A stretch of 63,384 bases of DNA, the filler included, from Reclinomonas americana ATCC 50394 (lineage: Eukaryota): assembly GCA_048213135.1 (NCBI GenBank). It is 9 parts of 4 records of this genome, joined end to end, with 100 filler letters (N's around TTAATTAATTAA, not from the genome) between each part and the next. Parts side by side here need not be neighbours in the genome. Positions count along the whole stretch, not along the records: positions 1 to 31,892 come from PS015241.1; positions 31,993 to 38,477 come from PS015242.1; positions 38,578 to 45,011 come from PS015242.1; positions 45,112 to 50,527 come from PS015242.1; positions 50,628 to 54,027 come from PS015242.1; positions 54,128 to 56,505 come from PS015242.1; positions 56,606 to 57,956 come from PS015243.1; positions 58,057 to 61,873 come from PS015243.1; 1 more part is not named here. The stretch is one strand, 5' to 3'. Position 1 is the first letter of the stretch. Each line of letters begins with the position of its first letter. The notes under the pieces are model-generated. The model worked only from the letters and a program-made list of their open reading frames with translations, was not told where the DNA came from and searched no databases. The position numbers and the translations under genes were made by a program. Of this stretch, positions 1,004 to 60,526 are shown one piece after another.

Positions 1004-4000
1004 CTACGCCACCCGCTTGCGTGCCGACAGAACCAGCACAAACATGCCGAGGAGGCGCCAGAACACCATTATCACGAATAGCAAGATGAATGCCAGCCAG
1101 ATGTTGTTCTGCGAATCACGACACGTAAGGCACATGCAACACGGAAAAACACTGCCATCCACCACGACGCAACATCGACACCCAGCGTGTTGATCACGTC
1201 CTCTCCTGGAGAGGGGGCTGCCAGTCAGGCGAAGGACACATATGGCACGACAGCGGTGATGCAAAACAAACCAGTTCGATAGACACACAGCTGACCGGGA
1301 ACGCACTGGAAGACGACGCCGGAAAACTGCACATCAAGAGAGAGAGGAAAGCTGAGTGGCAATGAAAGGGAGGGAGAGGGAGAGAGAGAGGGATAGAGAG
1401 GGATAGAGAGGGATATAGAGGGAGAGAGAGGGATAGAGAGGGAGAGAGAGAGGAGAGCACACAGAAGAAAGAGTGTGAGAGATAAAGGCAGAACGAGTCT
1501 TCCATTGACCAAGTCCAGTTTCGTGACATACAGGCAGACCGTGGCAAACTGCAAGCTACAGCACATCGCTGAAACCCACTCAAATGCACAGAACATGCAG
1601 CACACAGGGACGCGGAGAAAGGGACAGACAGCGAACTCGCAGTATTCACATATGCATGAGACACTATTGTGAGCACTTACGAGAAAGCAGTTTCGTGCGC
1701 GAAACACAGAAATGAATAGCTCTACCACATCGCCAACACCCAATCAAGCTGCCCAGAGAGAGGCACAGACGGAACTCTCACAACATTCGCCAATACGTAC
1801 GAACACTCAGTCTTGTACGCTCTCACATCGCCGACACTCATACGACAAGGCCAAGAGCACGAAGGGAGAGAAAGTACACACAACGACCCCTCCTCCTTCA
1901 CGCACCTCATTCGTCACCAAAATCTGGAACACGTATCGCGGGAACGAAATGTACGAAATCCATCTCTGTGACAGCAATGAGCGAACGCACACTCCACAGC
2001 AGAAACACTGTGTCCGTGCAGACGTACCAAGAAGGAAGGAATGTCGCTCTGCCACGATATAAACACTCAAGATATGAGCAATCGGGAGACTGAGCGCATG
2101 ACTGCTCGGATTCACGTACCAGCTGCACAAAGAAGCCTGAATGCGGTGGCAAGCACACCATGACGGGAATATGAGAATATCAACAGGCGAAGATCGGGCG
2201 AGTTATACGCGACAAGACAAACCAGCAAACAAAATCTGCACAGAGCAAAAGCGATTGATGGTGAGCTGACAAAGCACAGTGCGCACGACATTTGCCATAA
2301 AGAGCGACAGACGGATTCTAGGAGACAGGGAAGAAACGGGACACGGCAAGAAAGGACAGCACTTCGTCAAGGCAGCGACACCCGATGCAGCAGACGTCAA
2401 CAGCAAAACGGGCATGAACGATAGGCTACGTGCTCCCTGTCTCATCGTGCTCCGTTGCCTCGTTTTCCTTTACTTGTCGCGCTCTGCAGATGCTTTTCTC
2501 GTTCGTCTCTTGACAGTCTCATTCTTTCCTCTTCCTTGTTCCATTCTGTCCATGCTCGTCTCGTTCTTCCCTTGGTGTTCATCTCATTCTTCTCTTGCTC
2601 GTGTCATCTTGCTCGTCTCATCCTGTTCCTGCTCACTTCGTTCTCCTTTACTTGTCTCGCTCTGCAGTTGCTTTTCTCGTTCGTCTCTTGACCGCCTCAT
2701 TTTTCTCTTACTCATCTCCTTCTCCTCCTCTTACTCGACTCATGCTCCTCTTGCTCTTTCGTTCTCCGTTCGCTCGTCTCGTTCTACTTTTGCTCATCCT
2801 ATTCTCCTCTTGCTTATCTCTCTTCCTCCCTCCCTCCCTCCCTCCCTCCCTCCCTCCCTCCTTCCCTCCTTCCTTTACACGCAACTTGAATCAACGTCAC
2901 CACCGGACCAAGCACCGTGCCAACGCCCGTGTTCGGCACCGCCGCCGAGATCATCATGCCCAACGCGTGTGCCACCAGCGCCGTCATAATCGCCGTGCAT
3001 ATCGTGATCAAAAAGTTGGTGAAGCCGCTGTTCAGGTTCGTCAACCCTGCCACGCAGCAGTGAGGAGAGTGAGGAGTGATGCATCCCTCGGCGCTAGTCG
3101 GTGGAGACGCAACAATACACGAGGCAAACGTAGATGATGATAGATACGATCTGTGTTGAGAAGTTGTTGGGATCAGCGGAGAAGAAGGGAAAGGAGCAAA
3201 ACGAGACAACTTACTTGGGAAGGCATGTCGGCAATGACACGAGCCGCTGCGCAGATTGACCACCGGGTACAACAATGCAGAGTGATTACCGACAAGCACC
3301 ACAGACAGAAAATAAGCAAATGCACGGACACCAAACAACAGTCAAAAAGACACACATTGATTGACGAGCACAGACACACGAACAGATACGTGAACGTGAG
3401 CGCATGGACAGAGAGACGTGCACATGTACGAACACGAGGGAACACACACACACACACAAGCAAACGAATGCACGGACACAACACAACAACAAAAAAACAT
3501 GCGCACAAACAGCAGATTAACAGTCACAGACACACGTACGAACACATGGGAACACACACACATGGACCACACACACACACGCACACAAGCAAACGAATGC
3601 ACGGACACAACACAAAGCACAGACAAATGAGCGCACAAACAGCAGATTCCCAGTCACAGACACACAATGATTGACGACACAGATACGTGAGCGTGAGCGC
3701 ATGGACAGAGAAGCATGCACACGTTCGCATTCACGGGAACACGCACACACACGGACACAAGCAAACGAATGCACGGTCACAACACAAAGCACAAACAAAC
3801 GAGTGCACAAACAGCAGATTCACAGTCACAGATACACAATGATTGACGACACAGATACGTCGTGAACGTGAGCGCACGGACAGAGAAGTATGCGCACGTA
3901 CGAACACGTGTGAACACACACACACACATGGACCACGCACACACACGCATAGAAGCAAAATAGATGCAAGGACACAACACAAAGCACAGACAAATGAGCG

Positions 4001-59938: not shown

Positions 59939-60526
59939 ATGGTGAAGGAGATCGAGAACGATGCCGAGTTTTACGATGCGGTGAAGAGCATCCGCCTCAC
60001 TGTCGTTGCGTGGAGGAGCTGGCGGTTCTCTGAGAAGAGTTGTCGCTGACTGTTTGTGTTTGTTCGCCAGGTGTACTTTTTTGCCACAGTTGCGCACTCT
60101 CACTCCTCAGCCGTCGCAGATCCCTGCTCTCTCACTTGTGTGTGCCTCGACAGTGGTGCGGACCATGCCGCAACATTGGACCGAAGGTGCTGCAGATGTC
60201 GGAGGAGGCGGCGTTCGAGGGCGTGACATTCATCAAGGTCGACACGGACAAGTTTGAGAATCTCAGCAGTGATCTGAAGGTCGACGCGATGCCGGTGAGT
60301 GCAAAGTGGGAGGATGTAGTGTGCGTGGGTGGTGCTGACAATGGGCTTGTGTGTGTTTGTGCGCAGACGTTCTTGTTGCGTGCCAAAGAGGAAGGGAGGG
60401 TGGGAGGGTGATATTGGCTGATTTTGAGTGTGGGAGCACAGGATGTACAAGAACGGAGAGCAGGTGGCCTCGATGCGGGGATCGAACTATGAGGCGCTGC
60501 GGTCGTTGGTGTTGCAGCACAAGTGA
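59939..60526 (+). CDS. TRX: Thioredoxin (WCGPC), five exons
   Basis: Spliced MVKEIENDAEFYDAVKSIRLTV|VYFFAT|WCGPCRNIGPK...KVDAMP|TF|LMYKNGEQVASMRGSNYEALRSLVLQHK*. Confidence 0.93.

Follow-up and report, generated by a model that had tools for sequence, protein, structure and literature searches.

The window analysed here, by which we mean the whole stretch of DNA under study, comprises 63,384 bases of the Reclinomonas americana ATCC 50394 assembly GCA_048213135.1 and is intron-rich DNA of about 52% G+C with 2,960 N. Assigning gene identities by Pfam searches on stop-to-stop open reading frames (ORFs), and by Protein Data Bank (PDB) chains for thioredoxin, we found genes for an ABCG-type transporter, an S9 peptidase, CSN8, an NPC1-like sterol-sensing protein and a thioredoxin (Table 1). 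These are names that a first-pass annotation of this DNA had already given them, while a further gene that it called NOP9 has no Pfam match. Recurring in these genes is a second form of 5' splice site, or donor, that begins GTTGCG and nearly always reads GTTGCGT, intermixed within single genes with ordinary donors of the form GTNNG. All 19 sites cited for this class in the first-pass annotation do carry GTTGCG on the strand given there, followed by T at +7 in 18 of them and by C at 60089.

Junctions in the NPC1-like gene were placed by homology. A one-exon query returned 780 relatives at E ≤ 0.001, the best 150 of the 780 being used as the listing, and 16 full-length homologues were aligned to the minus strand of positions 42,500-54,000 with our own protein-to-genome spliced aligner, whose only rules were a GT donor and an AG acceptor. 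The alignments placed GTTGCGT introns at six positions in this gene among seven ordinary donors, with support from individual homologues that differs from site to site (Table 1); the donor at 47700 lies in a poorly conserved stretch of NPC1, and at 43053 the local alignments terminate at 43050 to 43053 in 11 of the 16. To score boundaries more finely, we enumerated all pairs within ±9 nucleotides (nt), with any dinucleotides, against 15 homologues. The proposed pair was top at 45939 and 43242, where ties were slides giving the identical peptide, and it scored 1888 versus a best of 1932 at 43457 and 658 versus 665 at 47700. It was also the sole canonical GT..AG pair in that range at 43242, 43457 and 47700, and at 45939 the single other canonical pair fell far below it (856 versus 1091). 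Two ordinary introns were confirmed by an identical enumeration. Two shifted ways of drawing these introns were rejected: a GC..AG intron three bases later scores lower at every NPC1 junction tested (1754 versus 1888 at 43457), and use of the second GT inside the motif (+6/+7) is ruled out by the NPC1 alignments, the enumeration offering only a non-AG acceptor there.

Solved structures supplied a second set of anchored junctions in the thioredoxin gene, which we read as five exons of 66, 18, 141, 8 and 86 nt with the donors GTTGCGT, GTTGCGC, GTGAGT and GTTGCGT in turn. Exon 3 (residues 1-47) aligns over its full length with solved thioredoxins, beginning at the W of WCGPC, which is chain residue 30 or 31, and stopping at residue 75, in a PDB search with 108 matches at E ≤ 0.01. 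The 18-nt exon before the donor at 60089, the sole supported member of the class with C at +7, would supply the strand preceding WCGPC in the family motif, and exon 1 alone drew no match in the PDB search. Residue 2 of exon 5 falls on chain residue 80 of chains that exon 3 had also matched (2ypm_A, 5g31_A, 3zzx_A), and all 9 PDB matches of exon 5 are to thioredoxins, though weak ones at E = 0.11 to 1.2. The 8-nt exon together with one further base accounts for exactly the three residues missing after 75, which supports the donor at 60375 as well as its acceptor. Taking NPC1 and thioredoxin together, 9 of the 17 homology-anchored donors begin GTTGCG, a hexamer that makes up 0.9% of all GT sites in the window (65/7,392; p = 7e-15). 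Separately, a plus-strand GTTGCGT at 59691, 248 nt ahead of the thioredoxin start codon, may open an intron in the 5' untranslated region ending near 59927.

For the remaining genes we relied on Pfam-matched exons, open frame and two gene models of our own. The first, a motif-blind gene finder, had GT as its sole donor rule, a content measure trained on intron interiors minus their first 10 nt, an acceptor matrix and a length prior. Its commonest donor hexamer was GTTGCG, at 10 of 99 predicted introns and with 7 of these outside the training set, in an output of which many predictions are surely wrong. The second, informed model gave GTTGCG at 23 of 117 introns, a count to be read knowing that the model rewards both donor classes equally and is hence biased towards them. 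A gene finder using codon usage only and an open-frame filter were both discarded as too crude for exons as small as 5-24 nt, and a short-intron score exceeded its 95th percentile at 6 of 25 untrained GTTGCGT sites versus 291 of 7089 GT sites overall, making it a weak classifier.

With these sources, the CSN8 intron at 23294 is supported because the read-through ORF spends 78 residues on 53 profile positions (81-133), and the 25 extra residues equal its 75 nt. In the ABCG gene, the exon upstream of 8883 is open for 243 codons up to the site, with the Walker A exon (Pfam ABC_tran 3-52) downstream and both gene models in agreement, and at 7563 no other splice preserves frame into the following ABCG exon, in a region read by the usual order of ABCG motifs. 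At 24297 the informed model preferred a GT 5 nt downstream. The first-pass annotation had held that several of its donors are forced by protein frame. Homology supports donors at NPC1, thioredoxin, CSN8 and ABCG 6498; the sites at 8883, 5595, 2885, 11371, 13102, 21459, 24297 and 58469 are based on uninterrupted frame, on reading the exons nearby and on what the gene finders gave, and at 21459, 24297 and 58469 the intron meets an N gap or lacks a clear acceptor. Frame, family motifs and the gene finder added about seven donors to its list (7563, 5678, 4814, 3113, 1173, 18172 and 37202).

Table 1. Genes, introns and donors in the window; for minus-strand donors the coordinate is that of the G of GT.
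Feature	Position	Length	Strand	Support or remark
ABCG-type transporter gene	about 1-9.2 kb		minus	Pfam
S9 peptidase gene	16.5-21.7 kb		minus	Pfam
CSN8 gene	23.1-24.3 kb		minus	Pfam
Three intron-less WD40 genes, tandem	27.3-31.3 kb		plus	Pfam
Two Ank-kinase paralogues	32.9-36.0 and 39.2-42.2 kb		minus	Pfam
NPC1-like sterol-sensing protein gene	42.6-52 kb		minus	Pfam
Thioredoxin gene	59,939-60,527		plus	sequence reading and PDB matches
N-block joins	31893-31992, 38478-38577, 45012-45111, 50528-50627, 54028-54127, 56506-56605, 57957-58056, 61874-61973 and others
NPC1 intron GTTGCGT	45881..45939	59 nt	minus	16/16 alignments; branch-like CTGAC, acceptor CACAG; strong
NPC1 intron GTTGCGT	43397..43457	61 nt	minus	15/16 alignments; strong
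NPC1 intron GTTGCGT	43177..43242	66 nt	minus	15/16 alignments; strong
NPC1 intron GTTGCGT	47640..47700	61 nt	minus	plurality, 6/16 alignments (rivals 3, 3, 2, 1, 1); motif-blind gene finder
Probable last NPC1 intron GTTGCGT	42980..43053	74 nt	minus	2/16 alignments; weak
Probable NPC1 intron GTTGCGT	51688..51749	62 nt	minus	2/16 alignments and informed model; weak
NPC1 ordinary donor GTACGT	48532	741 nt	minus	16/16 alignments
NPC1 ordinary donor GTGAGT	47497	805 nt	minus	16/16 alignments
NPC1 ordinary donor GTGCGT	46448	351 nt	minus	15/16 alignments
NPC1 ordinary donor GTGAGT	44490	885 nt	minus	14/16 alignments
NPC1 ordinary donor GTGAGT	49952	1104 nt	minus	12/16 alignments
NPC1 ordinary donor GTGAGC	51655	818 nt	minus	11/16 alignments
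NPC1 ordinary donor GTACGG	50308	61 nt	minus	10/16 alignments
Thioredoxin intron 1 GTTGCGT	60005..60070	66 nt	plus	frame: exon 1 joined in frame to 18-nt exon
Thioredoxin intron 2 GTTGCGC	60089..60153	65 nt	plus	downstream exon aligns to solved thioredoxins
Thioredoxin intron 4 GTTGCGT	60375..60441	67 nt	plus	preceded by 8-nt exon 60367-60374; structure coordinates
ABCG intron GTTGCGT	6442..6498	57 nt	minus	first residue of next exon begins a match to Pfam ABC_tran 109-134 (E = 1.5e-5); motif-blind gene finder
ABCG intron GTTGCGT	7500..7563	64 nt	minus	after 5-nt exon 7564-7568; sequence reading; newly listed
ABCG intron GTTGCGT	5619..5678	60 nt	minus	motif-blind gene finder; upstream exon weak ABC2_membrane_7 (E = 0.016); newly listed
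ABCG intron GTTGCGT	5534..5595	62 nt	minus	motif-blind gene finder and informed model
ABCG intron GTTGCGT	3047..3113	67 nt	minus	frame; phase-1 splice into Pfam ABC2_membrane exon; newly listed
Probable ABCG C-terminal intron GTTGCGT	1109..1173	65 nt	minus	frame and informed model; newly listed
ABCG intron GTTGCGT	8348..8883	long	minus	repeat-filled; acceptor uncertain: 8348 by reading, 8432 by gene finder
ABCG donor GTTGCGT	2880..2885		minus	Pfam ABC2_membrane exon ends here; acceptor uncertain (2236 or 2787)
ABCG donor GTTGCGT	4814	long	minus	sequence reading; newly listed
S9 peptidase donor GTTGCGT	18172		minus	frame, family motifs or gene finder; newly listed
S9 peptidase donor GTTGCGT	21453..21459		minus	intron heads into N gap; upstream exon weak DPPIV_N (E = 0.056); frame
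CSN8 intron GTTGCGT	23220..23294	75 nt	minus	in frame without stops; preceding exon is Pfam CSN8 81-112 (E = 4.1e-5)
Donor GTTGCGT, CSN8 region	24291..24297		minus	weak: 25-codon open frame ends there
Intron GTTGCGT, gene earlier called NOP9	11371..11432	62 nt	plus	motif-blind gene finder
Donor GTTGCGT	13102..13108		plus	upstream frame open 224 codons; gene finder; acceptor uncertain (13730 in models)
Intron GTTGCGT, unnamed gene	37126..37202	77 nt	minus	top short-intron score of GTTGCG sites (16.4); motif-blind gene finder; newly listed
Donor GTTGCGT	58463..58469		minus	upstream frame open 59 codons; intron enters contig join, no visible acceptor

By the informed model, GTTGCG opens 6 of 20 predicted introns in ABCG, 7 of 21 in NPC1 and 3 of 4 in thioredoxin, and none of 14 in the two kinase paralogues nor of 8 in a repeat-exon gene at 56.5-58.0 kb. 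The class thus appears spread unevenly among genes, a contrast we hold tentatively given that the kinases are duplicates and the models self-built. Across ABCG, NPC1, thioredoxin, CSN8 and the S9 peptidase we put the share of GTTGCGT at between about one donor in five and one in three, an estimate because the informed model missed several sites accepted by reading. Among other recurrent words, GTCTGT-type donors (43 sense : 3 antisense) may be a further form or a mis-drawn GTGAGG five bases upstream.

The reading of ABCG and thioredoxin also drew out tiny internal exons, at 7564-7568 (5 nt), 60367-60374 (8 nt), 7953-7969 (17 nt) and 60071-60088 (18 nt), with further ABCG examples at 8035-8058 and about 8118-8131 (24 nt each). 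They are flanked by introns of 55-75 nt of both donor classes, and intron density in the ABCG nucleotide-binding domain reaches in places about one per 5-24 coding bases. The 8-nt exon is backed by solved-structure coordinates and the others by frame and family motifs.

To describe the two donor classes we compared 26 curated GTTGCG donors, 9 of them with homology at the junction, with 13 ordinary donors having homology or motif support. In the GTTGCG class positions +1 to +6 are invariant in all 26, including T at +3, C at +5 and G at +6, and T occupies +7 in 25. This is the pattern that the first-pass annotation had described as a +5 G displaced to +6, and its remark that most other donors here read GTNNG holds too, with G at +5 in 13/13 supported ordinary donors and variation at the positions before it (+3: G9, A3, T1; +4: A6, C4, T2, G1). 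The exon side differs too: position -1 is G in all 13 ordinary donors versus 4 of the 26 (T13, C5, A4, G4; Fisher p = 2.9e-7), and the T found there in 13/26 GTTGCG donors exceeds a quarter (p = 0.006). Phases 0, 1 and 2 are represented by 10, 8 and 8 introns in the curated list.

Downstream of the donor the two classes look alike. All curated GTTGCG cases begin with GT and finish with AG, and in both classes a branch-like CTSAC or CTRAY lies, by eye, 14-22 nt before the acceptor; of 14 introns inspected, all show by eye a motif of this kind (CTGAC, CTCAC, CTCAT, CTGAT, CTTAT or TTGAC). Acceptors are RCAG in both, often after CG, and a pyrimidine-rich 3' region is common to both. Intron lengths are 57-77 nt for GTTGCGT versus 55-72 nt for short ordinary introns, with a few long GTTGCGT introns (8883, 13102, 2885, 4814) and many long ordinary ones as well. 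The intron bodies do not form a repeat family, 18 GTTGCGT introns having a mean pairwise local score of 7.93 (shuffled 7.24, max 14) versus 7.92 for 18 ordinary introns. A pairing of +3..+6 with a CGCAG acceptor was considered and set aside, CGCAG being equally frequent, by eye, in ordinary introns.

Turning to the occurrence of the word itself, the window holds 33 GTTGCGT on both strands versus 7.83 ± 2.51 (largest 16) in 100 dinucleotide-preserving shuffles, an excess of about 10 standard deviations, and Markov expectations are 8.1 (order 1) and 11.6 (order 3). The shorter GTTGCG occurs 65 times versus 36.07 ± 5.79 expected, so that the comparison with background which the first-pass annotation had named as a check finds both words above shuffle expectation. 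Over the 40.4 kb of genes with known orientation GTTGCGT is found 26 times sense and 0 antisense, while forms without T at +7 divide 3:5 (GTTGCGC), 2:3 (GTTGCGG) and 1:4 (GTTGCGA). We treat this strand count as weak, supporting evidence because of the T-richness of the sense strand, GTTGTGT also dividing 12:0. Two neighbours of the motif showed no enrichment, GTTGAGT with 10 observed versus 6.6 to 12.8 expected (3 sense : 2 antisense) and GTTACGT with 1 versus 1.4 to 1.8.

Several features of the window lie outside the donor class. Nine 100-base N blocks share an N44 + TTAATTAATTAA + N44 layout, marking contig joins with a six-frame stop spacer, and the contigs are ordered rather than merely concatenated because NPC1 spans two joins in the right order. 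The three WD40 beta-propeller genes (27323-31301, plus), with ORFs of 357-395 amino acids and nearest database proteins 28-61% identical, are intron-less amid a very intron-rich region. The two kinase paralogues have a common intron position (34158 and 40642, minus) in the context AGTGAG|GTCTGTCTC. On the minus strand at 56550-57956, a predicted gene whose seven or eight exons each measure about 27-66 nt, several being exactly 57 nt, with phase-0 introns of 55-69 nt, donors ...AG|GTGAG or GTGCG and acceptors GCAG|CAGC, resembles a tandem exon-intron repeat. Simple repeats of the types (CT)n and (GT)n fill the long introns (46693-47497, 48849-49952, 43606-44490 and others), which accounts both for a strong strand skew (plus-strand A over T where genes are minus) and for many sub-threshold microRNA (miRNA)-like Rfam matches. 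At the gathering threshold Rfam gave no matches in the window, and no tRNAs; with permissive thresholds added it still gave no small nuclear RNA (snRNA) gene there, the permissive matches being sub-threshold miRNA or small nucleolar RNA hits on simple repeats.

The GTTGCGT sites are well supported as intron starts that lie in major-type introns of otherwise ordinary make-up and follow a donor rule of their own; how that rule is read is a matter of inference. To explain a donor so uniform within the intron and so indifferent to the exon, we favour, tentatively and somewhat short of even confidence, the reading that GTTGCGT forms a true second consensus for the 5' splice site, used by ordinary short (~57-77 nt) and by some long spliceosomal introns and read by a dedicated RNA, a proposal made from sequence. 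On this proposal canonical U1 would serve G|GTNNG, the ordinary class needing G at -1 and +5, and GTTGCGT would be read as a fixed seven-letter intronic word to which the exon contributes nothing. The heptamer would be recognised by full complementarity to that RNA, in the simplest case a U1-type snRNA variant with a 5' end predicted as ACGCAAC, and not through a bulged helix with the canonical U1 of the ordinary, GTGAG-rich class. A reader pairing with all seven letters fits because GTTGAGT and GTTACGT are unenriched, the C at +5 is fixed and the exon-side G is lost. The same catalytic machinery would probably remove both classes, since branch-site type, pyrimidine-rich 3' region and RCAG acceptor are shared. 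It is more doubtful, and in our view rather unlikely, that the window reflects two donor systems within one major-type spliceosome, canonical U1 together with a U1-like RNA for about a quarter of introns, the latter a third kind of reader besides U1 and U11.

Several points weigh against this preferred reading. Splicing at the GTTGCGT sites is drawn from protein conservation and frame only, and homology at the junction backs just 9 of the 26 class members, the others depending on frame, family motifs or the gene finder that we built. No more than 13 ordinary donors were curated, the data come from one window of one genome, and strand composition confounds the sense/antisense count. A dedicated RNA would also make it a coincidence that GTTGCGT equals GTGCGT, a used ordinary donor, plus one T. 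Finally, Rfam found no snRNA gene in a search confined to the window.

That last equivalence in spelling is the starting point of a different explanation, which we consider unlikely though a serious contender, namely that one canonical U1 (and U6) reads GUUGCGU in a bulged register, with U at +2 or +3 bulged out and G+4, G+6 and U+7 acting as +3, +5 and +6. The first-pass annotation had suggested such U1/U6 pairing as one of two mechanisms, the other being a variant snRNA dedicated to this class, and several points favour it: GTGCGT is a supported ordinary donor (46448, 8117), all other intron signals are common to both classes, and registers that bulge the nucleotide at +3 (or +2) are described for human sites (PMC4856993). 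The details of the class nonetheless disfavour it. GTTGAGT, the bulged form of the commonest donor GTGAG, would pair better yet sits at background, as does GTTACGT; C at +5 is invariant though a mismatch, whereas the matching +4 of ordinary donors varies; and G at -1 is lost, where a weaker helix should rely on it more. These arguments presuppose a U1 with the canonical 5' end.

The class might instead owe its donor to history, in a past burst of mobile introner-like introns with a GTTGCGT 5' end that landed at sites without exon-side signals. We think this improbable, although it would account for the missing exon consensus, the even phases (10, 8, 8), the narrow lengths, the composition-confounded restriction to the sense strand and the several GTTGCGT introns that lie 5-24 nt from another intron, and Micromonas carries, next to ordinary introns, introner classes that each have a donor motif of their own (PMC3879977). 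Against it, the intron bodies are no more alike than ordinary short ones (7.93 versus 7.92 in mean local score), and ordinary donors also adjoin tiny exons. Such an origin would be compatible with any recognition mechanism because it leaves present-day recognition unexplained.

Less probable again is U1-independent recognition, in which a protein or the U6/U5 stage would read UUGCGU directly. Our own pairing analysis, which suggests that the motif lacks a good register on canonical U1, would fit such a reader, but we found no complementarity to the ACAGAGA box of U6, and no candidate factor is known. Precedents of a general kind exist in reports of U1-independent splicing (PMC4856993) and of U1-less spliceosomes (bioRxiv 10.64898/2026.05.17.725761). 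That GTTGCGT is no splice signal at all, the excess arising by chance or composition and the introns being mis-drawn, we regard as very improbable, since a T-rich sense strand that biases T-rich words such as GTTGTGT does not sit with an enrichment of ~10 standard deviations over shuffles, a strand bias specific to T at +7, and homology-anchored junctions that back donor use, GTTGCG making up 9 of the 17 anchored donors versus a 0.9% share of GT sites in general.

Donor choice is normally a matter of one degenerate consensus and one U1. A large and sharply defined second class would be a natural experiment, and might bring to light a specialised snRNA of a new sort or else a non-canonical register of unusual rigidity. 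If true, a U1-like second reader would allow introns to sit at any exon sequence and beside exons of 5-8 nt. In practice, gene finders trained on GTNNG would misannotate about a quarter of introns and most tiny exons in this genome. A whole-word literature search for the hexamer and heptamer in DNA or RNA letters, to which figure logos and supplements are closed, returned no paper on splicing as judged by title and the opening of the abstract.

Setting the class beside known systems, we find it closest to U2-type GT-AG introns in its GT..AG ends, its CTSAC-type branch site 14-22 nt from the acceptor, its pyrimidine-rich 3' part, its short length and its presence in the same genes. It departs from them at the donor, a fixed heptamer carrying C at +5 followed by G, without a -1 G and without variation at +3 and +4, so that it does not match the canonical U1 5' end, which calls for G at both -1 and +5 and for a purine at +3. 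U12-type introns have the donor RTATCCTT and a TCCTTAAC branch site close to the acceptor, with no pyrimidine tract. They resemble the GTTGCGT introns in being a second class in the same genes with a long, near-invariant donor that lacks an exon consensus, implying a recognition RNA of its own; the GTTGCGT introns, however, have neither RTATCCTT nor TCCTTAAC, possess a pyrimidine tract and are otherwise major-type. In abundance too the classes differ, at about 0.36% of introns for U12-type in mammals (PMC4856993) versus tens of percent for GTTGCGT.

The human bulged U1 registers described in the same source resemble our case in that GTTGCGT can be written as an ordinary GTGCGT with an extra U after GU, but they concern scattered sites, whereas here the class is large and uniform, the bulged forms of other donors are not enriched and exon-side pairing is lost. 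A model for the reading of GUUGCGU comes from Entamoeba, where the U1 5' end AACAAAC matches the donor GUUUGUU, and from Mastigamoeba, with its changed U1 5' end ACGUAC (both reported in bioRxiv 10.1101/2022.06.08.495308): an atypical, extended donor, with T at +3 in Entamoeba, is matched there by an altered U1. Those donors are near-universal in their genomes, whereas here two classes coexist, and a single changed U1 would therefore be unable to serve both. Micromonas introners (PMC3879977) likewise come in several classes with class-specific donors, on the sense strand only and with one class averaging 67 nt, but their copies are alike over their whole length, while GTTGCGT introns share the donor and general signals only; the 'BOC1' introns of Mamiellales in the same paper, being AT-rich and without conserved signals, were ruled out as a match. 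The GTTGCGT class thus falls outside U12-type introns by donor, branch site and abundance and outside the introner families by similarity, and we would place it among major-type donors, as a variant form.

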